NCBI GenBank assembly: GCA_039193195.1
Contig: JBCCWS010000001.1
Location: forward strand, 69,338 to 133,337
Reading direction: 5' to 3'
From: Pseudomonadota bacterium
GTDB taxonomy: Bacteria > Pseudomonadota > Gammaproteobacteria > Steroidobacterales > JBCBZW01
Length of the DNA: 64,000 bases
In this document: positions 43,298 through 59,455 of the stretch, one piece after another
Position numbering within the stretch: position 1 is the stretch's first letter
How the letters are laid out: every line of letters begins with the position of its first letter
Translations under genes and position numbers: made by a program
Notes under the pieces: model-generated
Databases searched by the model: none
Seen by the model: only the letters and a program-made list of their open reading frames with translations
Told to the model about the DNA's origin: nothing

Positions 43298-43453
43298 GGC
43301 CTGGTGGCTCCGGTGGTCTGGGGGCTGTATCGGTCTAGGCGCGAGCGCGGGGGATTTCGGCTCACGCAGCGTGTGGCGATGGTGCGTGAGCTGATTCGCG
43401 CCTGCTCCGCGCCTAAGGGAGCAACCCATCCCCAAGAACGAGCGGAGCCGATC

Positions 43454-44299
43454 ATGACTGCCACCGAACCCACCATCGCCTGTCCCAAGTGCGCAAACCC
43501 AAATCCGCTCGGCGCCAAGTTCTGCAGCAGCTGCCGGGCTCCCCTGGGCGTCGCCACTGCGCCTCCGGGCCCTGCCGCCGCGCCGCCCCCGCGTCCCGCC
43601 GCGGGCCTCGCCGGCATGGTGGGTGCGGGCGCCGGCAAGAGTGAGACTCGCCAGCTACAGGCGGACGCGGCATCCGTCTTCGAGCACCTCTCCAACGGCC
43701 TGCGCAACCGCGGCGGCCAGGTGCAGCAGGAGATGCCGATGCAGTTGAATATCAAAGTGCCTTACAAGAGCTTCTGGCTCACGTTGGGCGCGGTGATCCA
43801 GGTCGATACCGCCATGCAGGTGGTGCCGACAGCGGCCGGCCAATGTCAGGCCACGCTCACCACCAAGACCGATGGCAGCAGTTTGAACAACGTGTGGACG
43901 TGGTTCGCCGTGTCTTTCACGATCCTGCTCTTCTTGAACCTCTACATCTTCCCTATCATCATTCTGCTGGGAGCGGTCAGCGCCTTCTTCAACCACCGCC
44001 AGCTCAACAGCCAGCCTGGCGCAAAGATCACCGAAGAGCTCTTCGCCGATCTCAACAACAACCTATCGTCCTTGACAGCCAGTGCGGATCAAGCCACTCA
44101 ACCCGCGCCTGGACCTAGCCTCCAACCAGAGCCGCAACCCGCGCCACAGGCCAGCAACTGCGCAAGCGAAGAGAAGCAGGGACTCGAGCAGGAAGAGGTC
44201 TTTGACCGCTTGGCTAAGCTCGCCAAGCTGCGCGAGATGGGCGCGGTGACGGAGGAGGAGTTCGACGCCAAGAAGGCTGAACTTCTCAAGCGCATCTAG
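43454..44299 (+). CDS. Zinc-ribbon / TM / SHOCT-domain protein
   Basis: N-terminal CPKCANPNPLGAKFCSSC. TM region VWTWFAVSFTILLFLNLYIFPIIILLGAVSAFF. C-terminal SHOCT-like EEVFDRLAKLAKLREMGAVTEEEFDAKKAELLKRI. The track's N-terminal extension is antisense to the previous gene. Confidence 0.65.
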   Translation: MTATEPTIACPKCANPNPLGAKFCSSCRAPLGVATAPPGPAAAPPPRPAAGLAGMVGAGAGKSETRQLQADAASVFEHLSNGLRNRGGQVQQEMPMQLNIKVPYKSFWLTLGAVIQVDTAMQVVPTAAGQCQATLTTKTDGSSLNNVWTWFAVSFTILLFLNLYIFPIIILLGAVSAFFNHRQLNSQPGAKITEELFADLNNNLSSLTASADQATQPAPGPSLQPEPQPAPQASNCASEEKQGLEQEEVFDRLAKLAKLREMGAVTEEEFDAKKAELLKRI

Positions 44300-45798
44300 T
44301 GGCGAGCGAAGCGGTCGCGCAGTACTGCGTCGCCTGCGGTCATACCCTGCAGGTCGGCGCCAGCTTTTGCACCGAGTGCGGGCACGAGATCGGCAAGGTG
44401 CCGGCGGCAACCGGCAGTTGGCAGGCGCCGCAGATGCTCGGCGGCACCTGCACGACCTGCGGCGGCGACGGCTCCCTGCTCGAGGCAAGCCAGGTCTACT
44501 GCCCAAGCTGCCGCTGGCTGCGCCCCCTAGGCGAGGACTACTTCGTCGACCTCGACGCCTTCATTTGGCAAATGGACGCTCAGGCCATGCAGGCGCTCAA
44601 CAGCACGGGCGCCGTTGCGAGCGCAGCGCACTCCATCGCCGAGCGCTACGGTCGTCCGGTCTTCGAGGCGGCGACCAATGGTATACGCCTCTCCGAGCGG
44701 CAAATGCCAGAGATCTTCGACATTGCGATCCGCGCGGCGCGTTTGCTGTCGCTATCGCACATGCCGGAGGTGTACATCTCCGGCCAGCGCATGTGGGACG
44801 TCTACTCGCTCGGGGGCTTCAGCGGCAGCTTCGTCTCGATAGGCAGCGTCTTGATTAACTTCAAGCCGAAGGACCTGTTGTTCCTGATCGCCCGGGAGAT
44901 GGGCCACGTGCGGGCGGGCCACGTGTACTGGTCCACCGCGATGCAGTTTCTCATGGGGCAGTCCAAGGGCCAGGGGACGATCCTTGGGGAGGGTGTGTTT
45001 CAGTTCTTAAACCCCACCAAGATCATCGAGTCTGCGATAGAAGCGCCGATGATGCGCTGGGCCCGTCACTCGCAGATCACGGCGGATCGTGCCGCGGCGC
45101 TGGTGACTGGGGACATCGACACGGCACGCCGGGTGTTGACCCAATGGGCCATGAAGTCCTTCCCGGTCGCGGGCAAGATGAATCTCGACGCCTGGCTTGA
45201 GCAGGAAGCGGCGGCCGACGATCCCTACCTCAAGCTGTCCGAGTGGACGATGTCCACCGAGCCCTATCTGGCGCCACGGTTGAAGTCCCTGAACGCGTTC
45301 GTGCACTCGCAGGCCTTCCTCGAGTGGTTCGCGTACATCCAACACTGGAGCGAGCAAGCAGGCCTTCCCTCGTTTGACGATGGTGCCGCGAAGAAAGCCA
45401 AGCGCGCTAAGCCCGCGCCATCGCCGCCGCCGAACACGGAGAGGATCGAGTGTCGGGCCTGCGGTGAGGCCATGCGCGTGCCCACCCACATCCTGGAGGG
45501 CGACAAGCCCGTCAACGTGCGCTGCCCGAACAAGGCCTGTCGCAAGGTACTGCGGGTCAAGCCGAGGAAGAGGCGGACGGCGAGCGAGGAGTCCCCACGA
45601 ACCCGTCGTGCGCGCGAAAAGGTCAAGCTCAACTGCGCTGCCTGTGGGGAGGCGATGATGGTGAACCGGGCGGATCTGGCGGGAGATGAACCCGTCAACG
45701 TGCGCTGCCCGAACGCCGCGTGCGGCGAGATTCTCACGATCAAACCGAAGAGGCGCGATGACGCATCGACCAATCGACCGGATCTGATGGCGGACTAG
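44299..45798 (+). CDS. Double zinc-ribbon protein with an M48-like peptidase domain carrying a degenerate HExxH (REMGH) and two C-terminal zinc-ribbon repeats
   Basis: CVACGH..CTECGH and CTTCGG..CPSC. FLIAREMGHVRAGH at 44893-44907. Duplicated C(R/A)ACGEAM...PVNVRCPN(K/A)AC modules. The GTG start overlaps the upstream TAG by 1 nt. Confidence 0.65.
   Translation: MASEAVAQYCVACGHTLQVGASFCTECGHEIGKVPAATGSWQAPQMLGGTCTTCGGDGSLLEASQVYCPSCRWLRPLGEDYFVDLDAFIWQMDAQAMQALNSTGAVASAAHSIAERYGRPVFEAATNGIRLSERQMPEIFDIAIRAARLLSLSHMPEVYISGQRMWDVYSLGGFSGSFVSIGSVLINFKPKDLLFLIAREMGHVRAGHVYWSTAMQFLMGQSKGQGTILGEGVFQFLNPTKIIESAIEAPMMRWARHSQITADRAAALVTGDIDTARRVLTQWAMKSFPVAGKMNLDAWLEQEAAADDPYLKLSEWTMSTEPYLAPRLKSLNAFVHSQAFLEWFAYIQHWSEQAGLPSFDDGAAKKAKRAKPAPSPPPNTERIECRACGEAMRVPTHILEGDKPVNVRCPNKACRKVLRVKPRKRRTASEESPRTRRAREKVKLNCAACGEAMMVNRADLAGDEPVNVRCPNAACGEILTIKPKRRDDASTNRPDLMAD
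45508..45714 (+). repeat. Intragenic duplication: 24-bp perfect copies (cccgtcaacgtgcgctgcccgaac) at 45508-45531 and 45691-45714, within two 61-aa-spaced zinc-ribbon modules
   Basis: Identical 24-mers read directly. The flanking protein sequence is similar but diverged. Confidence 0.85.
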
Positions 45799-45811: not shown

Positions 45812-46315
45812 ATGAGCGAAAGAGAGCCACCGCAGGAGTTTGAAGTCTACCTCGCTGAGGATGGGCATCAGGAAGTGCCGGCGGAGGGTTTCGTCCCGCA
45901 AGAGGGTGTTGTTGTGGAGCGCGCTGCCTCCGCGCGCGACAGCGTTGCCCCGAGCGCTCAGGGCGCTGCGAATTCCGCCCAGAGTCAAGCGCAGGCATTT
46001 CAGGCTGCTCAAGCCAATGCCCAGGTTCAGCAGAGCCTAGCCGAGAGTGAGGTGGCTGCGGCCGATCTGCTCGCTGAGGAGCAGGCGCGGGAGCGCGAGG
46101 AAGAGCACCGACTCGAGGTGGAGATCGCTGAGGATCAGCGCCAGGAAGCCCTCGAAGCGCAAGCCGATGCCGAGGCGGAGCGCCTGGAGGCGCAGGAGGA
46201 GCGCGCCCGAGAAGAGCAGGCGCGTGAGCGGGAGGAAGCAGAGGCCCGCGAGCGGGAAGAGCAAGAAGAGGACGAGGACGACGCGCAAGACGACGGATCG
46301 GACCTCTACGTTTGA
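45812..46315 (+). CDS. Glu/Arg/Ala/Gln-rich coiled-coil-like acidic protein (167 aa)
   Basis: SD ggggagg upstream. EEQAREREEEH / EERAREEQAREREEAEAREREEQEEDEDD low-complexity tail. 13 nt after the previous stop. Confidence 0.5.
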   Translation: MSEREPPQEFEVYLAEDGHQEVPAEGFVPQEGVVVERAASARDSVAPSAQGAANSAQSQAQAFQAAQANAQVQQSLAESEVAAADLLAEEQAREREEEHRLEVEIAEDQRQEALEAQADAEAERLEAQEERAREEQAREREEAEAREREEQEEDEDDAQDDGSDLYV

Positions 46316-46377: not shown

Positions 46378-46959
46378 ATGGCCGAATTACGTTTCACTGA
46401 CATCGATCGCCCTGAACCCGGCACCGCCGAGGCCGTCGAAGCGGAGTACGAAGTCGAGCTCGCCGGTCTGAACGACAACGAGAGCGCTCAGGTAAAGGAG
46501 GCCATCAGTGAGGCCGAGTTCAACAACGAGCTCGATCAGTTGGACGTGAGCGAAGAGCTGCAGCAGGCCCAGTTTGCCGAAGAGGACCGAGCCGCCGCGG
46601 AGACCTTGCGTGAGGAGCAAGTGGAAGCCGCTGACGTTGGCAACTACGACGCGGCGCGCGAACGCGCTGAACAGGTTCGCGAAGAGCTACGCGAATCCAG
46701 CGACGAACACGGCGGGCAACTCGACGCGGCGCTGGCAGAGAACGCGCACGACGTGGAAGTGCTGAGCGAAGCGGACTTCCAGCAGGAGAACGCCGAGTTC
46801 TTCGAGAATGCGGTAGTGGATATGCCGAGTGCCGAGGGCGTCGATGGGGCCGTGGACGACGCTTGGGATGCGCAGGATGCTGCGGACGACGCGGCTGCGG
46901 ACAGCACGGATTTCGCCGACACGGGCGGCGATAGCTCTATCTACACCGACGTTAGCTAG
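46378..46959 (+). CDS. Highly acidic hypothetical protein (193 aa)
   Basis: SD gagga upstream. D/E/A-rich, with no TM. Confidence 0.5.
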   Translation: MAELRFTDIDRPEPGTAEAVEAEYEVELAGLNDNESAQVKEAISEAEFNNELDQLDVSEELQQAQFAEEDRAAAETLREEQVEAADVGNYDAARERAEQVREELRESSDEHGGQLDAALAENAHDVEVLSEADFQQENAEFFENAVVDMPSAEGVDGAVDDAWDAQDAADDAAADSTDFADTGGDSSIYTDVS

Positions 46960-48367: not shown

Positions 48368-49588
48368 TCAGGATGCGCAAACCTGCACGGTCTCGCCGAT
48401 GTCGTTGAGGATATGTCGCAGGTGGTCGTAGTCCGGATGGCGAACGCGCATCCAGGCGCCGGCCATGTAGCCACCCTCGACGGAACCTGCGGGCGCTCCG
48501 GGGCTCGGGATGTTCGCGGCCACAATGTCGTTATGGTAGCGCTTGCCGATTTCATCGAGACCCTCCACGTGGGTGACGCGGCCGTCGCGGTCGGCGCGCA
48601 GGGCGATCATGCCGCAGGCGAAGCGACGCGAGGGTCGCTGTACGGTGCGCCCGTGACAGACGGCCATGGCCCAGTCGCGGTACAGATCGATGTCGTTGCC
48701 CGCGTTGTACACATCCCACTGACACACGCCCGGTGGCCGGCAGCCGATCTCTGAGAACTTAAGCCCCTTCGGCCCGATGAACCACTCCATGTGGGTGGCG
48801 GCCGTGGGGATGCCGAGCACGTCGATGACCTTTTGCGCCATCGCTTTGACCTCACTGTACCCCTCCGCGTCCACTCGGTTGGTGGCCACCATCTGGGGTG
48901 AGATCCAGCGCGTGCGCATGGCCTCGAGCACGTTCGGGTAGTAGTGGGTGATGAACTCGTAGGCGATCTGACCGTTCACGGTGATGGTGTCGAGGAAGCC
49001 CTCGTGGCCTTCGATGAACTCTTCTACCGCTGTCGGCGCGCCGCGGTCGACGCCGCTCTCGCTGATCGCCACCTTGAGCTCTTCATTGGTACGGGCCTTC
49101 CAGGTGCCGGCCGCGCCGGCCGCGGCACGCGGCTTCAGGATCACCGGCAGGCCGACCTCGTCGACGAAGTCACGCACTTCCTCGGCGGAGCTGGCGCCGG
49201 TGGAGAGGGCGCAGGGCACGCCGGCAGCCCGCAGCACTTCCTTCATCGCGGGCTTATCGCGGCAGAGGTAAGCGGTGCGCGCGGAGACGCCCGGGATGCC
49301 GCAGCGTTCACGGACGTTCGCCGCGGCCTCCACGTGGGCTTCCACGGTCGCTTCCAAGCGATCGACCCAGAGGCGACTCTGCACGTTGCGCACCGCCTCC
49401 TCGAGCTGACGCTCGTTCACTACCGAGCCGATCTGCACGTAATCGAACAGCCAGCTCGAGAGCTGCGGATCGAGCCAGTCTCGCGGACGTTCGCCGATGC
49501 CGATCACCGTGGCGCCGGCGGCGTGCAGGCCGCGCACGAACTCGCGCTGGTTGGCAGGGAAACAGGGTTCGACGAAGATCACGTTCAT
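48368..49588 (-). CDS. ATP-grasp domain ligase (carboxylate-amine/thiol ligase superfamily)
   Basis: Pre-ATP-grasp Rossmann-like N-terminus. Central CRDKPAMKEVLRAAGVPCA...LPVILKPRAAAGAAG...VEEFIEG...EIGCRPPG pattern typical of ATP-grasp enzymes. Confidence 0.8.
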   Translation of the reverse strand: MNVIFVEPCFPANQREFVRGLHAAGATVIGIGERPRDWLDPQLSSWLFDYVQIGSVVNERQLEEAVRNVQSRLWVDRLEATVEAHVEAAANVRERCGIPGVSARTAYLCRDKPAMKEVLRAAGVPCALSTGASSAEEVRDFVDEVGLPVILKPRAAAGAAGTWKARTNEELKVAISESGVDRGAPTAVEEFIEGHEGFLDTITVNGQIAYEFITHYYPNVLEAMRTRWISPQMVATNRVDAEGYSEVKAMAQKVIDVLGIPTAATHMEWFIGPKGLKFSEIGCRPPGVCQWDVYNAGNDIDLYRDWAMAVCHGRTVQRPSRRFACGMIALRADRDGRVTHVEGLDEIGKRYHNDIVAANIPSPGAPAGSVEGGYMAGAWMRVRHPDYDHLRHILNDIGETVQVCAS

Positions 49589-49626
49589 GGCGTCACCACA
49601 GCGGATGCTGATTGAGTTAGCGGAAG

Positions 49627-51120
49627 TTATAGGTTGCGCATGCGCGCGTAGACGTGGAGGTACTCGCGGGCGCGGCGGGGCCAGCTGAAGTCAGCGCGCA
49701 TGCCGTTGTCCATCATCTTGCGCCAGTGGTTGGGCTGGCGCCAAAGGCTCAGGGCCCGCTCGATGGCCCAGATCACGCCCCCCGAGTCGAAGTGGTCGAA
49801 GACGATGCCGTTGCCTTCGCCGGAGCCGGTGTCGTACTGCTCCACCGTGTCGGCGAGCCCGCCCGTGCGCCGCACGATGGGGATGGTGCCGTAGTTCAGG
49901 CTGTACATCTGGTTCAGGCCGCAGGGCTCGTAGCGCGAGGGCATGAGGAACATGTCGGCCCCCGCCTCGATGAGGTGGGCGAGGCGCTCGTTGTAGCCTC
50001 GGTAGAAGCAGACGCGGCCTGGGTAACGGCTTTGGAGGCTCGCGAAGAACTCCTCGTACTTGCCCTCGCCGCTGCCGAGCACGGTCACCTTCATCGGGTG
50101 GCGCTCCAGCAGGTGGGGCAGGGAATCGAAGAGGATCTCGAGGCCTTTCTGGTAGGTGAGGCGCGTGACCATGCCGAGCACGGGGGTCTTCTCATCCACC
50201 GTCGGGTTGCCGCTGCTGATGCCGAGCGCTTGCAGCAGCGCTACCTTGTTGTCGGCCTTGCCGGCGGGTGCGTCCGCGGAGTAGGGCTGCTCGAGGTGCT
50301 CGTCTTCCTCCGGGCTCCACACCTCCGTATCGATACCGTTCAGGATGCCGACGAAGGTGGCGTGGCGCGCGCGCAGCATATCGTCGAGGCCTTCGCCATG
50401 CTCGGGCGTTTGTACCTCCCGGGCGTAGGTCGGGCTCACCGTCGTGAGTGCGTGGGCGTGCAAGACGCCGGTCTTCAGGAAGGACATGACCCCGCGCCCC
50501 AGGTCCTCCTGATGCACCTGGTTTCGGTGTTCGCTCAGCCCGACGTCTACCACTGCCTGCTCGCCGAACCAGCCCTGGTAGGCCATGTTATGGATCGTGA
50601 GCAGGGAGCGTGTCCGATAGAACAGGCTGTCCCAAGCGAACAATGTTCTCAGGTAGAGCGGGATTAGGCCGGTCTGCCAGTCGTGGCAGTGGACCACGTC
50701 CGGGTCGAAGCCCATGCGTTGGCAGCACTGCAGCGCCACGTGCGAGAGCACGGCGAAGCGCAGGTGCTCGTCGACGTCGTTGGTGTACAGGGCGCCGCGG
50801 TGGTAGAGCACGGGGCAGTCGATCAGGTAGATCCACAGGCCTGAGCCCGGCAGGGGCACCGTGTACACGTTGCAGATGTAGTCGTGGGGGCCGAGTTGCA
50901 CGCGCAGGTTTTGCAAGAACTCCACTGGCACGAAGTAGGCCTGGCTACGATCGATCGTGTCGTACAGCGGCATGAAGATGCGCTGCTCGACACCTAGGTC
51001 GTGTAGGTGCCGCGGCAGGGCCGCCGCCACATCGCCGAGCCCGCCCGCCTTGGCAAAGGGGGCGAGCTCAGAGGTGACGTGAACGACGCGCAAGGTGGCG
51101 TCGCGGTTCTCCTCGCTCAT
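49627..51120 (-). CDS. glgA: Glycogen synthase (ADP-glucose type, GT5)
   Basis: VVHVTSELAPFAKAGGLGDVAAALP N-terminal signature and C-terminal LMPSRYEPCGLNQMYSLNYGTIPIVRRTGGLADTV. Confidence 0.95.
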   Translation of the reverse strand: MSEENRDATLRVVHVTSELAPFAKAGGLGDVAAALPRHLHDLGVEQRIFMPLYDTIDRSQAYFVPVEFLQNLRVQLGPHDYICNVYTVPLPGSGLWIYLIDCPVLYHRGALYTNDVDEHLRFAVLSHVALQCCQRMGFDPDVVHCHDWQTGLIPLYLRTLFAWDSLFYRTRSLLTIHNMAYQGWFGEQAVVDVGLSEHRNQVHQEDLGRGVMSFLKTGVLHAHALTTVSPTYAREVQTPEHGEGLDDMLRARHATFVGILNGIDTEVWSPEEDEHLEQPYSADAPAGKADNKVALLQALGISSGNPTVDEKTPVLGMVTRLTYQKGLEILFDSLPHLLERHPMKVTVLGSGEGKYEEFFASLQSRYPGRVCFYRGYNERLAHLIEAGADMFLMPSRYEPCGLNQMYSLNYGTIPIVRRTGGLADTVEQYDTGSGEGNGIVFDHFDSGGVIWAIERALSLWRQPNHWRKMMDNGMRADFSWPRRAREYLHVYARMRNL

Positions 51121-51124
51121 CGCG

Positions 51125-52366
51125 TCAGGCCGCGCCGCCTTCCTCGGCGAGGTAGTGCTGGATGCGGTTCCAGAACAGCTCCGTGAACTCCTCGTGCTCG
51201 TGCTCGGGGAACAGGGCCTTCACCTTCTGGTTCACCGCGTCCCGCGCCATCGGCGAGGAGAAGAACTCGGCCGCCACTTCATCTAGGTGGGAAAGGTGCT
51301 TGTCGCAGAATTCCTCGAAGCGGTCGGTTTCGAAGCGCAGGCGGGCAATCTTGGCGTAGGCGCGCAGGCGCTCGCGGTAGGGCAGATCCTGCTCGGCGAT
51401 CTTGTAGTAGGGATCGAAGTTCAGGTTCGAGTGAAAGCGACGATCCGTCGCCGCGCAGAAGATCGACCAGCGAAGGTTGGCCTTGATCAGCCACGGGAAG
51501 TGGTAGTGCAGGGAGGTGACCTGCGAGTCCGGGCAGGCGTTGGCGTAGTCGATCGGATGCCACACGGTGCCCTGGCGCAGGGCCTCGCAGCTGTTGAAGT
51601 CCCAGCCAAAGAAGCTGTTGATCGTGAGCGTCATGTCTTCGAGGAGCGAGGCGTCCTCGGCGCTCAGGAAGTCGTGATCCATCGTGTAGCGGTCGTGCAG
51701 GGGAGCACTCGGCGCGTAGTTCACCAGGCGGATCTGCGGCCCCAGGCCCACGGCGCGGATGTAGAAGTCATGCGGGAGCACGGCCTTTTGCACGTTCATC
51801 ACCGTCTTGCCGCTCGCGTCGTAGGCGGCCCGCAGCTGCTCCGAGTTGTCGGCCTTGGTCACGCCCACCCAGCCGCCGCCGTGGTACGGCTTCATGAAGA
51901 CGGGGTAGCCGATTTGCTCGCCGATCTCATCGAGGTCGAAAAGCTTGGCGTAGCGTCCCAGGGTGACGTCCAGGTCTGCCGAGGATTCGTACTCCTTAGC
52001 CGGGATCATCCAGGTACGGGGCACGGGGAGCCCTAAGCGCATCATGGCGCAGTAGGTGGTCTGCTTCTCCATCGACTGCAGCGACCAGGGATTGTTGTAT
52101 ACGTAGAGGTCATCGAGGATCACGGACTTCTTGATCCACTCGCGGGTGGGCGAATACCAGTGCGTGAGGCGATCGATCACTACCTCATACCTGCAGGGCT
52201 GCTGCAGATCGAAGGGTTCGATGGTCACCCGCTCGCTCTCGAAGCGCAGCGTGTCGCCCCCCATGGGCACGCGCAGGTCGAGGCGCTGCAGAATCTCCTC
52301 GTAGCAAATCGGCCAGCACACGTCGGCCCCGAGCGAGAGCCCAATCAGTCTCGTTACCTCAGCCAC
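51125..52366 (-). CDS. ATP-grasp-like protein (RimK/glutathione-synthetase-like fold, divergent) with a C-terminal helical extension
   Basis: EKQTTYCAMMRLGLPVPRTW...GYPVFMKPYHGGGWVGV...NVQKAV resembles the ATP-grasp central/ATP-binding segments. 4 nt upstream of glgA. The family assignment is tentative. Confidence 0.6.
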   Translation of the reverse strand: MAEVTRLIGLSLGADVCWPICYEEILQRLDLRVPMGGDTLRFESERVTIEPFDLQQPCRYEVVIDRLTHWYSPTREWIKKSVILDDLYVYNNPWSLQSMEKQTTYCAMMRLGLPVPRTWMIPAKEYESSADLDVTLGRYAKLFDLDEIGEQIGYPVFMKPYHGGGWVGVTKADNSEQLRAAYDASGKTVMNVQKAVLPHDFYIRAVGLGPQIRLVNYAPSAPLHDRYTMDHDFLSAEDASLLEDMTLTINSFFGWDFNSCEALRQGTVWHPIDYANACPDSQVTSLHYHFPWLIKANLRWSIFCAATDRRFHSNLNFDPYYKIAEQDLPYRERLRAYAKIARLRFETDRFEEFCDKHLSHLDEVAAEFFSSPMARDAVNQKVKALFPEHEHEEFTELFWNRIQHYLAEEGGAA

Positions 52367-52430
52367 GTTCGTCTCCCCATAGCCATTGATGCCGGCGCCG
52401 CAGTCCCCCGCGTGCGCCGCGAAGTGTCCG

Positions 52431-53594
52431 TTACTCGTAGGTCATCCAGAGGGGCCCGGGGAACAGCCAGCTGAGCGCGTCCTGCAGGCGGTCGCGCCAG
52501 TTCTCCCAGTTGTGGCCGTCTCGCACCTCACGGTAGCGGATGTCCGGCCCCTTGTCCTGCAAGAACGCGATCATGGCGCGGTTCTCGCGGATCAGAGATT
52601 CGTAGACCCCACAACTGATGAACATGCGGTCGGCCGGCAGCCCTGGGGCCGCGCGCCACTCGTTCATGAAGCGGACCACAGGGTCGAACACTTCGCCGCG
52701 ATCGTGGTGGCCGATGTCCGTAAAGGCGAAGGAGCCCGACTGCAGCAGCAAGTTGCCGAAGACGCCGGGGTGGCGCCATGCGCAGTAGAGCGAGGCCACG
52801 CCGCCGAAGCTCGCGCCCATCAGCGCGCGGGCGTTGGGCGTATCGCGCAGGGGCAGGCGTGAGGTGAGCGTCGGCACGAGTTCCTCGGCGACGAAGCGTG
52901 CGTGGCGGTCGTCAGCAGCGTACTCGCGCAGGCGATCTGGCGAATGGGTCAGCGCCACAATCATCGGCTCGATCTCGAGGCGATGGGTCAGGTTATCGAG
53001 CACCGCGTGCAGATCGGCAAAGCGCAGAAAGTCATCGCCGTCGTGCACCACCAGCAGCGGGTACTGGCGGCTGCGCCGAAAGCGTGCCGGCAGGTAGAGG
53101 CGGACGCGACGGGTGTCGCCGAAGGCGCCGGAGGCGATGCCGATCTCCTCCAACGAGCCGTGGCGAGACTCGGCGTTGGGAATGGACCAGTCGGGCCGCT
53201 CGTAGCCGTGCGCCTGGCAAACCGAGTTGGCGCCGAACGGGTCTTCGGCCAGCCGCGGGTTCAGCGGATCGAGGATCCAGCGCGTGCCGCCCTCTTCCTG
53301 CTCGAGTTCGATCTTGTACTCGACGCGTGAGCCCGGGGGCAGGTCCATTCGCACCCACCAAAGCTCCGTGCCATCGATTGCGTGCAGGGGCTCCGCATGC
53401 GGGAGACCGAAGCCGAAGTGGCGCAGACGCACGGCCTTGGCGCGACCTCGGAAGAGGAAGGTGACGCCGAGGGGGTCGCTGACCGGCCATTCGTGCTCGG
53501 CGATGAAGGCGTCGAGGCGCTCGGGACTTGGGTTGCCATCGGCCAGTAAGGGCACGAGGAAGTCAGGCGGGGCCACCGCGTCCGATGGGCTCAT
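52431..53594 (-). CDS. Esterase (esterase D / enterochelin-esterase-type alpha/beta hydrolase) with an N-terminal E-set/CBM48-like domain
   Basis: N-domain pattern VTFLFRGRAKAVRLRHFGF...GTELWWVRMDLPPGSRVEYKIEL...WILDPLNP. Catalytic domain YPLLVVHDG, GASFGG nucleophile elbow, and a C-terminal DGHNW His context. Confidence 0.75.
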   Translation of the reverse strand: MSPSDAVAPPDFLVPLLADGNPSPERLDAFIAEHEWPVSDPLGVTFLFRGRAKAVRLRHFGFGLPHAEPLHAIDGTELWWVRMDLPPGSRVEYKIELEQEEGGTRWILDPLNPRLAEDPFGANSVCQAHGYERPDWSIPNAESRHGSLEEIGIASGAFGDTRRVRLYLPARFRRSRQYPLLVVHDGDDFLRFADLHAVLDNLTHRLEIEPMIVALTHSPDRLREYAADDRHARFVAEELVPTLTSRLPLRDTPNARALMGASFGGVASLYCAWRHPGVFGNLLLQSGSFAFTDIGHHDRGEVFDPVVRFMNEWRAAPGLPADRMFISCGVYESLIRENRAMIAFLQDKGPDIRYREVRDGHNWENWRDRLQDALSWLFPGPLWMTYE

Positions 53595-54529
53595 GCGGGC
53601 GTCTCCATCGTGGCGGTAGTGAGCGTGCCCCGCGCGTGCAGTCGCTGGCAGGCGTCGATCGACTGCCAGCCGTCGTCGTTGCCGAGGATGCGCGAGCCGG
53701 CATCCAGGGTGATGGCCGGATCCGGACCGAAGCGGCGCGCCATTAGGGCTACGCGTTCTGGGTCGTTCAAGCGCAGGCGCTCGCGCGCGTGAGGTAGGGG
53801 CAGCAGCGCGGGCAGCAGGTCTAGGCCGGCGTCGAGCACTTCGGCGTAGCCTGGACCTTGGGGAGGCGAGTCATGGAATAGCACGATGCGTCGCGAGAGC
53901 GCCATGGCGCCCGCAGACCACGCGATGATCGGCTTGCGGGCGATGATCTCGCCGAGGCCGAACAGGCGCAGTCGGCCGATGAGCGTGCTGACGTGACCGC
54001 CGGCCACGAGTACCGCCGCGGCGCGATCGACCTGTTCGGCGACTCGCTCGCGGACAGGAGCCAAGCTTGGGTGGCGACCGGGAGCCCAGGTCTGATCGAA
54101 GGCTGCATGAACGTCTTTGATGTGCCGCAGGTGTTGGCGGTCTAGGGTGCGCAGCGAGTTGATCGCCGCACGCCGTTCGCGTTGCACGATTTGTGCGTCG
54201 CCCTTGGCGCCGAGCATCTCCACTGCGGCGGCGGCGGCGTGGTTCAGCCGTCTGCGGTAGAGCGCCTGCAGCAGCCGAAGCTTGTCTTGACGGGCGCGGT
54301 GCGCGCGGAACAGCTCGGGATCGGCGCTGAACGCGTCGTTGACGGCCTTGTACAGACCAAGATCGGTGCAGGGTCGACCGATATGGCCGACCAAGTCGTC
54401 CAACTCTCCCTCGCGCTCCTGCCAGCCGGCGGTCACCGCGCACACGGCCCCGTCGATGGCGAGGACATCGAGAGTCTCAGCCAAGTTGGGTACGTGTCTT
54501 TGGGGGCCGAGTACGGCGATAGGGGGCAT
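53591..54529 (-). CDS. Peptidase S51-like (PepE/cyanophycinase-type, type-1 glutamine-amidotransferase-like fold) hydrolase with a roughly 100-aa helical insert
   Basis: VLVAGGHVSTLIGRL ... PIIAWSAGAMAL (GxSAG nucleophile context) ... LLPLPHA. ATGA overlap with the esterase gene. Confidence 0.65.
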   Translation of the reverse strand: MPPIAVLGPQRHVPNLAETLDVLAIDGAVCAVTAGWQEREGELDDLVGHIGRPCTDLGLYKAVNDAFSADPELFRAHRARQDKLRLLQALYRRRLNHAAAAAVEMLGAKGDAQIVQRERRAAINSLRTLDRQHLRHIKDVHAAFDQTWAPGRHPSLAPVRERVAEQVDRAAAVLVAGGHVSTLIGRLRLFGLGEIIARKPIIAWSAGAMALSRRIVLFHDSPPQGPGYAEVLDAGLDLLPALLPLPHARERLRLNDPERVALMARRFGPDPAITLDAGSRILGNDDGWQSIDACQRLHARGTLTTATMETPA

Positions 54530-54717
54530 GGCGAGGCGGCGATTTTAGCGATGAAAGGGAGGCGAGGCTGGCTCGCCACAAACCGGGCAGGCGCGATGGT
54601 AGGGGCGAGCTCGGGCAGCGGTCAAACCGCCGTCGAGGCCATGGCATACTCGCCCTCCCGTGGCTTCTCGGTGCTCGAGTGCAGCCGCGCTGAACCGCCG
54701 TCGCCTGGAGCCGACCC

Positions 54718-56028
54718 TTGAACCTAGCAACCCTATTGTCTCGCGCCGTAGTCATCCTGCTGGGCGTTCTGCTCTGCGCCGATCCTGCTCGCGCCTGTGA
54801 CGCCGACAACGGTGGTATCGCCCTGCCCGAGGGCTTTTGCGCCACGGTCTTCGCCGATGAGGCGGGACGCGCCCGGCGTCTGGTCGCAGCACCGAACGGC
54901 GTGGTTTACGTGGCCAATCAGAGCCGCGATGGCGATGGGATCATTGCGCTGCAAGACGTCGACGGCGACGGTAGGGCAGACCGGCGCGCGAGCTTCGCGG
55001 CTCCCGGTGGCGGTGGCTTAGGACTGCGCGGAGACTGGCTGTACTACGGTCTGGACGATCGCATCGTACGCTACGCCCTGCCGCCGGCCGGGGAGCTGGT
55101 GCCCGAAGCCAAGGCAGAGGTGGTCGTTAGTGGCTTTCCGAGCCAGCGTCAGCACGCCACCAAGACGTTCGCCTTCGACGGCGAAGGAAATCTCTTCGTC
55201 AATGTTGGGGCGCCCTCCAACGCATGCCAGCGCGAAATGCGCGAGGCCGGGTCGCCGGGGCTAGATCCCTGCCCTCAGTTGGCGCGCCAAGGCGGTGTCT
55301 GGCGCTTCAACGCGGATCGGCTGGGTCAAACTCAGGAGCGGCACGGCGAGCGCTACGCGAGCGGCATTCGAAACGCCGTGGCGATCACATGGGACGGTGT
55401 GGGCGATCGCCTCTACGTGGTCCAACACGGGCGCGACCAGCTCGCCGAGCTATGGCCGCAGAGGTTCACCGACGCGCAGCGCGCTGAGCTCCCCGCCGAG
55501 GAGCTATTCGCCGTCAAGCGCGGCGATGACTTCGGTTGGCCCTATTGCTACTACGACCCGATGGCGCAAGCTAAGCGCTTAGCGCCAGAGTACGGGGGGG
55601 ATGGGAAAGCGGTGGGTCGCTGCGAGGAGGCTGAGGCACCGGTCGTCGCTTTCCCGGCGCATTGGGCGCCAAACGACATCGTGTTCTACCACGGCGATCA
55701 ATTTCCGCCTGCCTACCGAGGGGGAGCTTTCGTCGCGTTTCACGGTTCCTGGAATCGCCAGCCCTTCGCGCAGCAGGGCTTCCGCGTGACCTTCGTGGCC
55801 GCCGACGAGGTTGGCCTGGCATCGTCTTACGATGACTTTGCCACCGGCTTCATCGGGCGCGAGGGCATCACCTCCCCGGGGCAAGCCCGCCATCGTCCAG
55901 CCGGCTTGGCGATCGACCGGGATGGCGCGCTATACATTGCCGATTCGACGGGAGGGCGCATTTGGCGCGTTACCTACAGCGCCAGTGCGAAGGCAGCCCT
56001 TCGCGGCCACGGCGAGGGCCGCCAGTGA
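54718..56028 (+). CDS. Periplasmic PQQ-dependent sugar (glucose/sorbosone) dehydrogenase-like beta-propeller protein
   Basis: Signal peptide with a TTG start. Motifs FVNVGAPSNAC, GIRNAVAITWD, GDDFGWPYCYYD and HRPAGLAIDRDGALYIADS are typical of soluble aldose sugar dehydrogenases. Confidence 0.75.
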   Translation: MNLATLLSRAVVILLGVLLCADPARACDADNGGIALPEGFCATVFADEAGRARRLVAAPNGVVYVANQSRDGDGIIALQDVDGDGRADRRASFAAPGGGGLGLRGDWLYYGLDDRIVRYALPPAGELVPEAKAEVVVSGFPSQRQHATKTFAFDGEGNLFVNVGAPSNACQREMREAGSPGLDPCPQLARQGGVWRFNADRLGQTQERHGERYASGIRNAVAITWDGVGDRLYVVQHGRDQLAELWPQRFTDAQRAELPAEELFAVKRGDDFGWPYCYYDPMAQAKRLAPEYGGDGKAVGRCEEAEAPVVAFPAHWAPNDIVFYHGDQFPPAYRGGAFVAFHGSWNRQPFAQQGFRVTFVAADEVGLASSYDDFATGFIGREGITSPGQARHRPAGLAIDRDGALYIADSTGGRIWRVTYSASAKAALRGHGEGRQ

Positions 56029-57077
56029 CCGCCGTTGGCAGCTTCTTCAGCGATAACGAGGCCACGGTGGCTGCGCCGATCATGCAGGCACTGCAGGCGG
56101 TAAACGCAGATGCCGTGCACTCCTACGGCGATGATCCCACCACCGCCGCCCTCGAGGCACGCCTGCGCGAGTGGTTCGAACGTGACGATCTGCAGGTGTT
56201 CCCGGTGGTCACGGGCACTGCCGCGAACTCCCTCGCTGCCGCTCAGCTGGTACCTCCCTACGGCGCGCTCTACTGCCAGCAGCACGCGCACGTCAATACG
56301 GACGAGTGCGGTGCGCCGGAGTTCTTTACGGCGGGCGCCAAGCTCATCGGGATCGAAGGCGAGCACGGCAAGATCGACGCTGGCGCCTTCGCTCGCGTCC
56401 TGTCGACGGCGGGCGACCTTGGCGTTCACGAGGTGCGGCCTTGTGCCCTCACCCTGACGCAGGGCACGGAGCTCGGCACCGTGTACACGCGCCAAGAGGT
56501 GCAGGCTCTGGCCGACCTGGCCCACGACCGCGACCTCAGCGTTCACATGGACGGGGCACGCTTCGCCAACGCCTTGGTGCACCTGGGTTGCAAGCCCGCG
56601 GACATCACCTGGCGCGCCGGCATCGACATGCTGTCCCTTGGCGCCACTAAAAACGGTGCCATGGCGGCGGAGGCGCTGATCACCTTCGGCAGCGAACAAC
56701 ATGGTGAGGCGCTCGCCTTCCGTCGCAAGCGTGCGGGGCACCTACTGTCTAAGCAACGCTACGTATCCGCCCAGTTGCTGGCTTGGCTGGAAAACGACCT
56801 GTGGCGAGATTTGGCGGGGCGTGCCAACCGTGGTGCCCAGCGCCTAAGTGCGGGCCTGCAGCGCCTCGCGCAGGTCGAGGTGGCCCACCCGACCCAGATC
56901 AACGAGGTCTTCGTGGTGATGCCCCCGGCGCTCGTGGCGGGGCTGCACGAGCAGGGCTTCGGCTTTTACGACTGGCCGGGTGGTCTAGCGAATCTGCACC
57001 GCCTGGTGGTGCGGTGGGATACGCCCGACGAGCATATCGAGGCGCTACTCGACAGCGCGCGGCGGCTCACGAACTGA
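56025..57077 (+). CDS. ltaE: Low-specificity L-threonine aldolase (PLP-dependent beta-eliminating lyase family)
   Basis: FFSDNEATVAAPIMQAL, YGDDPTT, VTGTAANSLA, DGARFANAL, and SLGATKNGAMAAEA (PLP Lys context). The GTG start overlaps the upstream TGA (GTGA). Confidence 0.85.
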   Translation: MTAVGSFFSDNEATVAAPIMQALQAVNADAVHSYGDDPTTAALEARLREWFERDDLQVFPVVTGTAANSLAAAQLVPPYGALYCQQHAHVNTDECGAPEFFTAGAKLIGIEGEHGKIDAGAFARVLSTAGDLGVHEVRPCALTLTQGTELGTVYTRQEVQALADLAHDRDLSVHMDGARFANALVHLGCKPADITWRAGIDMLSLGATKNGAMAAEALITFGSEQHGEALAFRRKRAGHLLSKQRYVSAQLLAWLENDLWRDLAGRANRGAQRLSAGLQRLAQVEVAHPTQINEVFVVMPPALVAGLHEQGFGFYDWPGGLANLHRLVVRWDTPDEHIEALLDSARRLTN

Positions 57078-57127
57078 CCCGATAGGGCACTAGGGTAGAG
57101 ACCGATTCAAGACAAGGAAAAGGAGCT

Positions 57128-57955
57128 TTGATGAACGAGCAAACAACGTGTGCCGTCGGCGCCGTGGCTGTGGCAATGGCGTCCCTGCTCATGGCGGGAC
57201 CGGCCAGCGCCGAGCACCTCGAGGGACTGGCAGTGGCCACCTGGGGGGATCACCGCGCGGAGGGAAACCGCGAGCGCAACCGCTACCGGCATCCGATCGA
57301 GACCCTCACCTTCTTCGGGGTGGCACCGAATATGACGGTGGCCGAGGTCAGTCCTGGGGGCGGGTGGTACACGGAGATTCTCGCGCCGTACCTCCGCGAG
57401 CAAGGCAAGCTCTACGCCGCCGCCTACGATCCCGAGAGCGAAGGTGAGTACTACCGCAACAGCGCCAAGCGCTTCCGCGACAAGCTGGCGGCTCATCCGC
57501 AGGTCTACGACAAGGTGGAGCTCGCAGTTTTCGAGCCACCGGGCAAGCTCGAGGTGGCACCGGCGGGTAGCGCGGATGTGGTGCTGACTTTCCGTAACAT
57601 GCACGGCTGGCTGAGGAACGATACGGCGCGCGCCGCGGTGGACGCCATGCACCGCGCCCTCAAGCCCGGTGGCGTGCTCGGCGTGGTGCAGCATCGCGGC
57701 GATCCTGCAAACCCAGCCCATCGCACCGGCGATGAGGGCTACATAGACGAGAATTACGTCATCGGCTTCATCGAAGCGGCCGGTTTCGAGCTGGTCGATA
57801 GCAGCGAGATCAATGCAAATCCCGCCGATCCGGGCGATCATGCCGTCGGCGTGTGGGCCCTGCCGCCCTCCCTGGAGCTCGGGGAGCAGGATCGGGAGCG
57901 CTACCTGCGCATCGGCGAGAGCGATCGCATGACGCTGAAGTTCGTCAAGCGCTGA
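57128..57955 (+). CDS. Signal-peptide-bearing class I SAM-dependent methyltransferase (COG4798-like)
   Basis: SD aaggag upstream. Signal AVAVAMASLLMAGPASA. SAM motif VAEVSPGGGWYTEIL, then LKPGGVLGVVQH. Confidence 0.75.
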   Translation: MMNEQTTCAVGAVAVAMASLLMAGPASAEHLEGLAVATWGDHRAEGNRERNRYRHPIETLTFFGVAPNMTVAEVSPGGGWYTEILAPYLREQGKLYAAAYDPESEGEYYRNSAKRFRDKLAAHPQVYDKVELAVFEPPGKLEVAPAGSADVVLTFRNMHGWLRNDTARAAVDAMHRALKPGGVLGVVQHRGDPANPAHRTGDEGYIDENYVIGFIEAAGFELVDSSEINANPADPGDHAVGVWALPPSLELGEQDRERYLRIGESDRMTLKFVKR

Positions 57956-58057
57956 GACCGGCGGCAGCCCGGTGCTGACGAACGGTCGGCACCTGGCACG
58001 CTTGTCGGCACGCCCCAGCAGTTGCTTAGTTTTCGGAAATACGCGAATCTGCGGCCC

Positions 58058-59455
58058 ATGAGCACGGATCCACACCTTGAACACTTCGGCCTGAGTGAGC
58101 CGCCCTTCCTGCTTGCTCCGGATCCGGAATTTCTGCATCTGAGCACGCAGCATTCGCTCGCTCAGGCGTACCTGAGCTACGCCCTGCTCAACCGCGACAG
58201 CTTCGTCATGCTCACCGGCGAGACCGGCACGGGCAAGACCACCCTGATCAACAAGCTGATCGCGTCAGCCGGGCAGAAGGTGGTGATCGCCCGCATCGCG
58301 CACTCCCAGCTCACGCCGCTCGAGTTACTGCAGTCCGTGCTCCTCGGCTTTGGCATTCGCGCCTTCGACAAGCAGAAGGTCGAGCTGCTGACCATGCTTG
58401 AGGACTACATCAACGAGCAGTACCAACAGAAGCGTCAGGTGCTAATCGTCGTCGATGACGCCCACAACCTCGGCGTCGACGTGCTGGAGGAGATCCGCCT
58501 GGTCACCCAACTGGTGACGCGTAAGGACGCGGCGGTCAACTTGATCTTGAGCGGTAGGCCGTCGCTTCGCGACGTGCTGGAGCTACCCGTCTTGGAGCAG
58601 CTGCGCCAACGAATTCGCTTCAACTTCCAGCTCAAGCCCCTCTCCGGGCAAGAGACGGCGGAGTACATCACGCGTCGCCTGCAGGTAGCGGGCGCGGAGC
58701 GAGAGCTCTTCTCCGACGAGTGTGTAGAAACTATTTACGAGTACACGGGTGGCATTCCGCGCCTGATCAACATCCTGTGCGACACGGCACTGATGTCTGC
58801 TTACACGGAGGGTTCGCCGGACGTGCAGGCCGTTACGCTGCGTACGGCGATCGAGGAACTAGACTGGCATCCCGTGCAGGGACTTGGCGATCGGGACGAC
58901 GTGGACACCACAGGATTCGATCACGAAGTCGCAGAGCCCCTCGACCTGCCGCTACCGGGCGATGACGTGGAGTTAGCGGAGGACATCGATCGTTCCATCG
59001 CGAGCTTGGCGAGCCTTCGCGGTGGTAGCTCACAAGAGGCGCGCGCTGCCGCCGCAAATAGCGCCCCACGCACGGAGACAAGGGCGTCCTTTCAGTTGTT
59101 TCTCGACAATGATGCCGTGGCCGAGCATCGCCTAACGAGCGAACGCCTCACGATTGGTAGAGACCAGGACAACGACATCCAAATCAACGCTGAGTACGTA
59201 AGCCGTCACCACGCCCAGGTAAGCTGGCTGCGCGGTGGGTGCTGGATAGCCGACCTGAACAGCACTAACGGGACCTTCGTCAACGGACTGCGCGTGCGCC
59301 GACGGCTGCTTCGTGACGGCGATGAGATTCAGTTCGGACGCCACCGTTTGCGCGTGCACTGCGCGTCACCCTCAGCCGAGGCCGTGGAAGTAGATAACGA
59401 CGATCGATGGCGCGAGACCTTGGTGATATCCGAGGAACAAGCGCAAAAAGCCTGA
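58058..59455 (+). CDS. ExeA/MshM-like AAA ATPase fused to a C-terminal FHA domain
   Basis: FGLSEPPF N-terminus. Walker A GETGTGKT, Walker B VLIVVDDAH. FHA core LTIGRDQDNDIQINAEYVSRHHAQV...DLNSTNGTFVNG (about 59147-59358). Confidence 0.8.
   Translation: MSTDPHLEHFGLSEPPFLLAPDPEFLHLSTQHSLAQAYLSYALLNRDSFVMLTGETGTGKTTLINKLIASAGQKVVIARIAHSQLTPLELLQSVLLGFGIRAFDKQKVELLTMLEDYINEQYQQKRQVLIVVDDAHNLGVDVLEEIRLVTQLVTRKDAAVNLILSGRPSLRDVLELPVLEQLRQRIRFNFQLKPLSGQETAEYITRRLQVAGAERELFSDECVETIYEYTGGIPRLINILCDTALMSAYTEGSPDVQAVTLRTAIEELDWHPVQGLGDRDDVDTTGFDHEVAEPLDLPLPGDDVELAEDIDRSIASLASLRGGSSQEARAAAANSAPRTETRASFQLFLDNDAVAEHRLTSERLTIGRDQDNDIQINAEYVSRHHAQVSWLRGGCWIADLNSTNGTFVNGLRVRRRLLRDGDEIQFGRHRLRVHCASPSAEAVEVDNDDRWRETLVISEEQAQKA

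Follow-up and report, generated by a model that had tools for sequence, protein, structure and literature searches.

What is a glycogen synthase gene doing between two ATP-grasp ligase genes? The question is raised by a compact operon in a 64,000-nucleotide stretch of contig JBCCWS010000001.1 (assembly GCA_039193195.1), from a member of the Gammaproteobacteria placed in the Steroidobacterales; we refer to this whole stretch as the window. The operon (48368–54529, minus strand) opens with the gene for an S51-like hydrolase of class-I glutamine-amidotransferase-like fold (53591–54529, 312 residues). It continues, in transcription order, with a Fes/feruloyl-esterase-type α/β-hydrolase of family PF00756 (52431–53594, 387 residues), a divergent ATP-grasp protein with a GTG start (51125–52366, 413 residues), glgA, encoding an ADP-glucose-type glycogen/starch synthase of family GT5 (49627–51120, 497 residues), and finally a second ATP-grasp protein of the L-amino-acid-ligase/PurK-like group (48368–49588, 406 residues). 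The ATP-grasp protein encoded upstream of glgA is called AG1 here and the one encoded downstream AG2. The five genes are tightly packed. The stop codon of the S51-like gene and the start of the esterase gene overlap as ATGA and 4 nucleotides separate the AG1 stop from the glgA start, as read in the sequence, while the coordinates give 64 nucleotides between the esterase gene and AG1 and 38 between glgA and AG2. A first-pass annotation, made from the DNA letters, had described this layout and assigned the families; the open reading frame (ORF) listing and a reading of the sequence confirm the former, and profile hidden Markov model scans, with matches above the cut-offs, the S51, esterase, GlgA and ATP-grasp calls. 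Comparison with other genomes indicates that the operon is the compact form of a widespread, previously undescribed cluster of ligases and hydrolases.

The cross-genome sample consisted of the best 80 of 240 loci seeded on AG1 in a scan taking one genome per species. According to their record labels, these derive from Gammaproteobacteria, Alphaproteobacteria, Myxococcota, Acidobacteriota, Planctomycetota, Actinomycetota, Chloroflexota and Eisenbacteria. Forty-three of the 80 extend at least 6 kb to either side of AG1, and all counts out of 43 refer to these full loci. The S51–esterase–AG1 series is near-universal in AG1-seeded loci, the esterase being present in 42 of the 43 and the S51-like gene in 39. 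A second, single-domain PF00756 esterase of about 240 residues directly follows AG1 in 35 (e.g., L004, 2515–3240), and an AG2 orthologue is found in 33. Paralogues of AG2 with 30–36% identity occur in 27, as does glgA. Less frequent members are a ligase combining GCS2 and CBS domains (17/43), an AstE/aspartoacylase-like hydrolase (11/43), a PGM1/BesA-like ATP-grasp protein (9/43), of which the 516-residue accessory ligase matches both the BesA model (144 bits) and the PGM1 model, and glgC (6/43). Up to four amino-acid-type ligases are found beyond the window set. The proteins of the cluster are 50–70% identical across phyla, from Gammaproteobacteria to Acidobacteriota, Myxococcota, Planctomycetota, Actinomycetota and Chloroflexota, and relatives with an AG1 identity of 85% and 77% retain the order S51, esterase, AG1, glgA, AG2, one of them having glgC immediately behind. 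The neighbourhood, whose confinement to this genome the first-pass annotation would have counted against its reading, is conserved beyond it in at least seven phyla.

The five genes do form a real operon-like unit, as had been proposed, but the unit is a reduced version of a larger system. The second small esterase is absent from the window (1–64000), and glgA holds its position; it seems to have been lost or relocated in the window lineage, to which L164 and L165 also belong in this respect. Some Myxococcota carry inserted genes between the esterase gene and AG1, and others between the small esterase gene and the next ligase. The inserted genes resemble those for a methyltransferase, a citrate-synthase-like protein, a PhoD-like phosphatase, a YheO-like regulator and secreted FG-GAP proteins; lineage-specific and unrelated by sequence inspection, they were not accepted as members of the cluster. 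In L163, from a 7.2-Mb genome, the segment 5349–11221 encodes an amidase (PF01425), the esterase, AG1, the small esterase and AG2, whereas an S51-like gene and glgA are both missing. The amidase was considered as a stand-in for the S51-like protein and rejected, since the arrangement is not repeated in the other S51-less loci checked. No plasmid-borne copies of the cluster were found.

An α-glucan synthesis gene (glgA, glgC, a second type of GT5 synthase or a branching-enzyme-like gene) is present in 29 of the 43 full loci. Where glgA occurs it tends to stand at one place, with AG2 directly behind it in 29 of 37 cases at a spacing of 0–253 nucleotides, and in several lineages the glgA stop and AG2 start overlap as ATGA or GTGA. 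As a control, 80 metagenome loci were seeded on GlgA, and the ATP-grasp genes of the cluster appear in only one of them. The association lies far beyond chance, because glgA, scored within 10 kb, accompanies AG1 in 27 of 43 AG1-seeded loci as against one cluster in 80 GlgA-seeded loci. Chance adjacency is ruled out by this control together with the conservation of the neighbourhood.

The glucan genes have also been recruited in more than one form. In a planctomycete (L061) and a member of the Holophagae (L072), AG2 is followed by a different GT5 synthase, only 27–28% identical to the window GlgA, and the planctomycete locus adds a branching-enzyme-like gene with CBM48 and α-amylase domains. 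GH13 genes lie at the edge of four other loci. The glgC gene directly flanks the cluster in L022, L024, L045 and L164; in some Gammaproteobacteria, glgC and glgA bracket the ligase and hydrolase genes, and two Acidobacteria (L046 and L055) lack the hydrolases but have AG1 next to glgA-glgC and two paralogues of AG2. Neither glgP nor glgX was ever found in the AG1-seeded loci, where only the biosynthetic genes glgA, glgC and branching enzyme are recruited. Because the recruitment is restricted to biosynthetic genes, the pattern looks like that of a synthase dedicated to a pathway rather than one of general co-regulation. Altogether this favours a real functional link to α-glucan synthesis, within which sequence comparison does not separate covalent decoration of the glucan from a distinct compound made alongside it. 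The first-pass annotation had described the enzyme set as wrapped around the synthase. That description stands in so far as glgA is present in 27 of the 43 loci, but glgA is a frequent accessory and not an invariant centre, the core also occurring without it.

The signature of the cluster is AG1. Its sole Pfam match is to Dala_Dala_lig_C, over 40 residues around the glycine-rich loop, at 25.6 bits against a cut-off of 24, and no dedicated family model for it was found in scans of Pfam or NCBIfam. An AlphaFold model (predicted local distance difference test, pLDDT, 78; predicted template modelling score, pTM, 0.82) gives an ATP-grasp part of about 310 residues and a C-terminal helical domain of about 100. 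Foldseek returned 288 matches at E < 1e-3, including RimK, Ddl, VanA, ArgX/LysX, synapsin and MdnC, with target-normalised TM-scores of 0.5–0.6. In an hhalign comparison, AG1 aligned with the AG2 family at a probability of 94.6% (E = 7e-8), pairing K159, E261 and D273 of AG1 with K152, E268 and E280 of AG2 at the positions of the ATP-binding Lys and the Mg ligands; we infer that N276 of AG1 is the motif Asn. Residues K101, K159, E261, D273 and N276 are invariant in all 78 orthologues aligned. Judged by these residues and by the model, AG1 is an intact ATP-grasp enzyme. The first-pass annotation had named a lack of ATP-binding or catalytic residues as a possible weakness of its proposal; the alignments place the ATP- and Mg-binding residues in both ATP-grasp proteins.

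At least 7937 proteins are homologous to AG1, typically 63–70% identical to the query even across phyla and annotated as hypothetical or as generic ATP-grasp proteins only. AG1 is more conserved across phyla than GlgA. In a library clustered at 50% identity, 314 representatives among 1.84 billion proteins match at E values up to 1e-30, and these comprise one main full-length representative, fragments and a few divergent members. Residues 68–99 of AG1 include many invariant positions (DRLTHWY…REWIKK…YVxNNPW) and have a pLDDT of only 25–37; in the model, this segment could be a loop that becomes ordered only upon binding of a substrate or partner. Two library representatives join AG1 to a PF00756 esterase, one in the order esterase–AG1 (P0480, 616 residues) and the other in the order AG1–esterase (P0509, 503 residues). 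As single representatives that may be gene-calling artefacts, they were given no weight as true fusions.

AG2 is recognized more readily, with a match to the Pfam ATP-grasp family PF02222 at 41.9 bits (cut-off 27). Its top sequence match in the PDB is BacD (E = 1.6e-10, residues 60–269 only), followed by other L-amino-acid ligases, and it scores 37.5 bits against the BacD equivalog model, the cut-off of which is 850. In an alignment of 113 sequences, paralogues included, H266, E268, E280 and R284 are invariant throughout, K112 and K152 are conserved in all 108 sequences that have a residue at those columns, and E189-E190 is conserved in every sequence with a residue there. The best 120 AG2 homologues are 406–425 residues long, nearly all exactly 406, and bear generic names only. 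By these sequence criteria AG2 is an intact ATP-grasp enzyme that resembles the L-amino-acid ligases but is no member of the BacD type.

The esterase matches PF00756 at 89.3 bits (cut-off 22), and its top PDB sequence match is the enterochelin esterase 2b20 (E = 3e-19), yet its score of 117.9 bits against the enterochelin-esterase equivalog falls below the cut-off of 222. G260-x-S262-x-G264, E332 and H361 are invariant in the 67 orthologues aligned, so that the Ser-Glu-His triad appears intact. The characterised relatives in PF00756 act on O-esters and thioesters, among them enterobactin seryl esters, feruloyl-sugars, mycolyl-trehalose and S-formylglutathione, and the ester is often borne on a sugar or serine hydroxyl; we know of no peptide substrates for them. 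An N-terminal β-sandwich domain spans approximately residues 40–135. The first-pass annotation had taken this domain for a CBM48-like, glycogen-binding module, an assignment that the profile comparisons do not support: the CBM_48 profile gives no match even at E values up to 10, CBM_20 is non-significant (E = 0.04), and Enterochelin_N reaches 19.9–22.6 bits, which is below its cut-off (E = 2e-4). Aligned by hhalign with the CBM48 of the planctomycete branching enzyme, the domain is in register at a non-significant probability of 0.8%.

The S51-like protein matches Peptidase_S51 (PF03575) at 30.7 bits against a cut-off of 23.9, over residues 159–288 and profile positions 72–203 only. Its AlphaFold model (pLDDT 92) contains a helical-hairpin insertion of about 80 residues (71–148), and all 18 of its best Foldseek matches in the PDB (E < 0.01) are S51 proteins, namely dipeptidase E, cyanophycinase and pseudo-CphB; the modelled protein has an S51 fold. 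Ser205 and His247 align with the Ser and His of PepE. Across 60 aligned orthologues Ser205 is kept in 58 and His219, within an LFHD motif, in 59, compared with 35 for the canonical His247. No conserved acidic residue was recognised as the third partner of a Ser-His-Glu triad. The pattern of the histidines suggests either a relocated general base or that some members are non-catalytic. In two Myxococcota Ser205 is replaced by alanine. A public record (P0121) gives the protein as 297 residues, 15 codons shorter than a start at the ATG at 54529 (54485–54529); the longer start seems right, because the shorter form would lack the conserved LGPQ motif near the N-terminus.

GlgA itself is unremarkable. 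It scores 530.4 bits against TIGR02095 (cut-off 328.45), 481 against the equivalog NF001899 (cut-off 459) and 242.8 against Pfam Glyco_transf_5, and it aligns end to end with the Escherichia coli enzyme (3d1j/2qzs) at 330 bits. The E. coli motifs taken as reference (K15 in KTGGL, H161 in HDW, R300/K305 in RLTxQKG and E377 in EPCGL) are represented by KAGGL (K24), HCHDW (H146), TRLTYQKG (R320/K325) and YEPCGL (E398), and K24 and E398 are each kept in 38 of 40 cluster-linked GlgAs. All of this marks the window protein as a canonical, intact ADP-glucose glycogen synthase. The use of ADP-glucose is consistent with the presence in the window of glgC, encoding ADP-glucose pyrophosphorylase (32886–34148, plus strand), which by tblastn is 70% identical to the cluster-adjacent GlgC of L008. 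As the first-pass annotation had noted, this gene is unlinked, about 15.5 kb from the operon, and adjoins a channel gene with an Ion_trans_2 domain match (34152–35258, immediately after glgC); its product is likely to supply the substrate of GlgA. The absence of glgB, glgP and glgX from the window, also noted there, is borne out by the lack of GH13 or glycogen-phosphorylase domains in the eight ORFs scanned of the nine with at least 600 residues. In a neighbour-joining tree, drawn from a biased sample and without bootstrap support, the cluster-linked GlgAs of all phyla fall into one clade with seven GlgA-seeded sequences, apart from the other sampled synthases.

How might these enzymes work together? 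The ATP-grasp reaction activates a carboxylate by converting it to an acyl-phosphate, from which the acyl group passes to an amine, hydroxyl or thiol. In the scheme that we tentatively prefer, while holding it to be somewhat short of probable, the ligases join amino-acid or peptide groups onto the glucan, or alongside it, and the hydrolases remove them. GlgC and GlgA would make an α-1,4-glucan; AG2, as the partner of GlgA, and AG1, the RimK/Ddl/VanA-like enzyme, would activate a carboxylate as the acyl-phosphate. The activated group would be an amino acid, probably of the acidic Asp/Glu type, or a short peptide, a proposal made because of the accessory BesA-like γ-glutamyl-type ligase, the GCS2 protein, the Asp-directed S51 family and the AstE/aspartoacylase-like hydrolase. 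It would be joined as an ester to the glucan or to a glucan-bound primer and could be extended through amide bonds. The Fes/feruloyl-type esterase, with its smaller paralogue in most genomes, would strip the ester-linked groups and the S51-like hydrolase would cut the amide-linked part. The outcome would be a build-and-remove cycle for a glucan conjugate holding both carbon and nitrogen. That the product is specifically an α-1,4-glucan with amino acids or short Asp/Glu-type peptides ester-linked to its hydroxyls, serving as an unrecognised intracellular reserve or stress polymer in at least seven phyla of soil and sediment bacteria, is unlikely on present evidence but deserves to be taken seriously.

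Several observations point towards ligation onto or alongside the glucan. By analogy with its characterised relatives, PF00756, which supplies the two most conserved hydrolases of the cluster, suggests O-ester or thioester chemistry, and the structural neighbours of the AG1 model include the ester-forming ATP-grasp enzymes VanA and MdnC. The conservation of the cluster, the coupling of glgA to AG2, the independent recruitment of GT5 synthases, the GlgA-seeded control and the GlgA clade are consistent with it as well. Other observations weigh against it. No glgA is found within 10 kb in about a third of the loci, and in L081 a four-gene core of S51, esterase, AG1 and small esterase stands with neither glgA nor AG2; because of these cases, the core chemistry needs no dedicated synthase next to it. 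No significant carbohydrate-binding module was detected in cluster proteins other than GlgA. The accessory enzymes found elsewhere (BesA/PGM1-like, GCS2 and AstE/aspartoacylase-like) are typical of free peptide and amino-acid chemistry, and the structural neighbours of AG1 are mostly amide-forming, some of them (RimK, LysX) acting on proteins. In 25 of 60 orthologues, the S51-like protein has D, N, A, E, S or G in place of His247. Finally, we know of no report of ester-linked amino acids on glycogen, and found none.

Many of the same features would suit a separate product, such as a free Asp/Glu-rich peptide, a poly-amino acid or an osmolyte, that is co-regulated with glycogen and has no covalent link to the glucan. 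This is a substantial possibility, if still a doubtful one. GCS2-CBS and BesA-like ligases would contribute to such a product where present, the S51-like, AstE-like and α/β-hydrolases would recycle it, and the adjacency of glgA and glgC would reflect only that the same conditions call for reserves of carbon and nitrogen or for stress solutes. AG2 and its paralogues are like L-amino-acid ligases, BacD above all, the accessory ligases are themselves amino-acid ligases by their BesA match and GCS2 domain, and S51 and AstE/aspartoacylase, the families of the hydrolases, are directed at Asp or Glu. As many as five ligases in a locus would fit the stepwise assembly of a defined peptide, and 14 of the 43 full loci, as well as L081 and L163, have the core but no glucan gene. 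A separate product, however, leaves unexplained why the best-conserved hydrolases are two PF00756 esterases, why the synthase was taken up by itself, instead of a complete glg operon, and became translationally coupled to AG2, why recruitment happened independently for GT5 synthases of two unrelated lineages, and why the cluster-linked GlgAs form a clade of their own.

Less likely than either of these is protein modification, in which AG1, AG2 or both would add a tail to a protein, perhaps GlgA or a granule protein, that the S51-like or AstE-like hydrolases would erase, with glycogen synthesis regulated as a result. RimK on S6, LysX on LysW and the TTLL enzymes on tubulin are precedents for such tailing, and complexes of RimK with RpsF and of ArgX with LysW are among the best structural matches of AG1. 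The 63–70% identity of AG1 across phyla, above that of GlgA, would fit a macromolecular partner, and the invariant, low-confidence segment 68–99 could be a docking loop. The candidate substrate is harder to find. The C-terminus of GlgA is not acidic, nor is it conserved as in the substrates of RimK or LysX, and the loci contain no other conserved family among ORFs of at least 100 residues, the only ORFs that entered the clustering, so that genes for small carriers or substrates are not excluded by direct search. Protein tailing also leaves the esterases without a role, and we regard it as improbable. Also less likely than the first two, and the least probable of the explanations considered, is the salvage of an ester compound, siderophore-like or another depsipeptide nutrient, with glgA adjacent by historical accident: the closest characterised relative of the esterase is an enterochelin esterase and one locus has a FUR gene close to the core, but the 80 loci hold no conserved genes for siderophore synthesis, receptors or transport, the esterase reaches barely half the enterochelin-esterase cut-off (118 against 222 bits), and the very strong enrichment of glgA, glgC and branching enzyme has arisen more than once.

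Assignments to several known kinds of system were tried and rejected. A ribosomally synthesised and post-translationally modified peptide (RiPP) or graspetide system was set aside in view of the lack of an extra conserved ORF family of at least 100 residues, small precursor genes not having been searched for explicitly. Anti-phage defence was likewise dismissed: the five proteins gave no PADLOC match, and a weak Pfam match of GlgA to a GT4-conflict family was below the cut-off. A siderophore esterase context was discarded, there being no conserved siderophore genes in the loci.

Cyanophycin metabolism is the most instructive comparison. In both systems an ATP-grasp enzyme is paired with an S51 hydrolase (CphA with CphB) in what would be the cytoplasmic building and degrading of a reserve; 3en0 and 7uqw, both cyanophycinase structures, are among the matches of the S51-like model, and the ATP-grasp cores of AG2 and its paralogues give weak local matches to CphA models. 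CphA, however, is defined by an ATP-grasp G domain and a Mur-ligase-like M domain in about 900 residues, with a score above the TIGR02068 cut-off, whereas no protein of the cluster has a Mur-ligase domain and there is no single large synthetase. Against CphA models with cut-offs of 850–877 bits, AG2 scores 27–31 bits over about 90 residues, and AG2 and its paralogues at most 37. The NCBIfam scan gave no cyanophycinase model match to the S51-like protein, which differs further in its helical insertion of about 80 residues and in a catalytic His that varies among orthologues. Unlike the present cluster, cyanophycin clusters contain neither a glycogen synthase nor PF00756 esterases. Model scores and domain content rule out membership among the cyanophycin synthetases and cyanophycinases, and the split, cyanophycin-like machinery suggested in the first-pass annotation reduces to a likeness at the superfamily level.

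The classical glg operons (glgBXCAP or glgC-glgA) share with the cluster a full-length, motif-complete GlgA and, in other genomes, an adjacent glgC. They differ in that the window glgA stands apart from glgC, glgB, glgP and glgX, between two ATP-grasp genes, and in that the conserved cluster includes no degradative glycogen gene. The L-amino-acid ligases BacD/YwfE, RizA and TabS are like AG2 and its paralogues in fold, in size and in their conserved Lys and Glu/Arg residues, and the 516-residue accessory ligase matches the models of the stand-alone ligases PGM1 and BesA. Those enzymes belong to narrowly distributed antibiotic or secondary-metabolite clusters, whereas the present ligases are part of a cluster with 57–70% identity across phyla and are joined to a glycogen synthase, and all scores fall far below the equivalog cut-offs. 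The Fes/IroD and feruloyl esterases (PF00756, COG2382) have the same N-terminal β-sandwich, α/β-hydrolase domain and triad of GxSxG serine, acid and His as the cluster esterase. The latter is set apart from Fes/IroD by its score below the equivalog cut-off, by the lack of siderophore context and by the second, single-domain paralogue present in most genomes.

A precedent for an esterified intracellular α-glucan exists in mycobacterial methylglucose lipopolysaccharide (MGLP). MGLP is a cytoplasmic α-1,4-glucan with ester-linked acyl groups, made by a dedicated GlgA-like transferase from a dedicated gene cluster. Its pathway relies on a GT4 transferase together with methyltransferases and CoA-dependent acyltransferases; succinate or short fatty acids serve as the acyl groups. 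In contrast to the present cluster, the MGLP pathway is not known to involve ATP-grasp ligases or amino-acid acyl groups, and its gene families were not found here.

Closest in logic are the amidoligase neighbourhoods, in which several ATP-grasp or COOH-NH2 ligases occur with AstE/M14-like peptidases (Iyer et al. 2009, as cited in PMC4431377). Their predicted products, which are both made and trimmed, are peptide tails, metabolites or storage polypeptides (PMC4431377). The cluster and the neighbourhoods of RimK-type ligases or amidoligases with peptidases have the same combination of ligase and peptidase, and the structures closest to AG1 are RimK and Ddl, but we found in the literature no such neighbourhood with a glycogen synthase or paired PF00756 esterases. 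The cluster is of the amidoligase/hydrolase kind and is drawn from known superfamilies; its combination with a glycogen synthase is undescribed, and AG1 is without a family model. Literature searches that paired ATP-grasp proteins with glycogen synthase, glgA, esterase, S51 or cyanophycin yielded no paper on a system of this kind, in line with the first-pass annotation, to which no characterised system of this composition was known.

The remainder of the window offers some context for the operon. Inspection by eye shows no obvious signal sequence at the N-terminus of any of the five proteins, and the products of the gene cluster probably act in the cytoplasm. A weak sigma-70-like match (54596–54625, minus strand; TTGACC-18-TACCAT, 9 of 12 matches) lies 67 nucleotides upstream of the start of the S51-like gene. 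It is only suggestive of an operon promoter, because about one such site is expected by chance (one found against 0.9 expected in the scanned region). Upstream, no riboswitch or other known RNA was matched in Rfam at E values up to 1, save one chance match to a long non-coding RNA. The flanking genes are unrelated, a GGDEF protein being encoded downstream on the same strand and a glucose/sorbosone-dehydrogenase (GSDH)-like protein upstream on the opposite strand. The latter belongs to a plus-strand segment beside the operon (54718–59455) that encodes the GSDH-like dehydrogenase, a beta-eliminating lyase, a methyltransferase and a protein with AAA_22 and FHA domains. These genes are outside the cross-phylum cluster and partly syntenic in L164 and L165, the two closest relatives, and the whole region is therefore locally conserved.

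Elsewhere in the window, two adjacent plus-strand ORFs (45812–46315 and 46378–46959) encode very acidic, low-complexity proteins rich in Glu, Ala, Asp and Gln, without a Pfam match, and sit between an M48 peptidase gene and the GGDEF gene. Before them on the same strand (43451–45798), the gene for a zinc-ribbon/SHOCT protein has its stop abutting the start of the next gene, which encodes double zinc ribbons, a Peptidase_M48 domain and further C-terminal Cys-rich repeats. Another plus-strand segment (17550–25596) places a protein with an MtrC/MtrF-like multihaem cytochrome domain (20891–23656) between two large FG-GAP/ASPIC-UnbV repeat proteins, and the long ORF at 3504–5351 encodes a BipA-type GTPase.

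Bacterial glycogen is taken to be a carbon store of plain chemistry, and, to our knowledge, the one dedicated nitrogen polymer that is well known is cyanophycin. A lineage of glycogen synthases tied to at least two ATP-grasp ligases and to ester and amide hydrolases points to a modified glucan or to a coupled carbon and nitrogen reserve. If the glucan is decorated, the system would be categorically new, and its product would be a combined store of carbon and nitrogen, chemically distinct from both glycogen and cyanophycin, in bacteria that are abundant in marine sediment and soil (Woeseiaceae, Kofleriaceae and Acidobacteriota). Even under the more ordinary explanation, a new peptide reserve or osmolyte made together with glycogen would imply a new and widespread pathway. 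Knowledge of the AG1 substrate would annotate thousands of hypothetical proteins and could reveal new ATP-grasp chemistry on carbohydrates.

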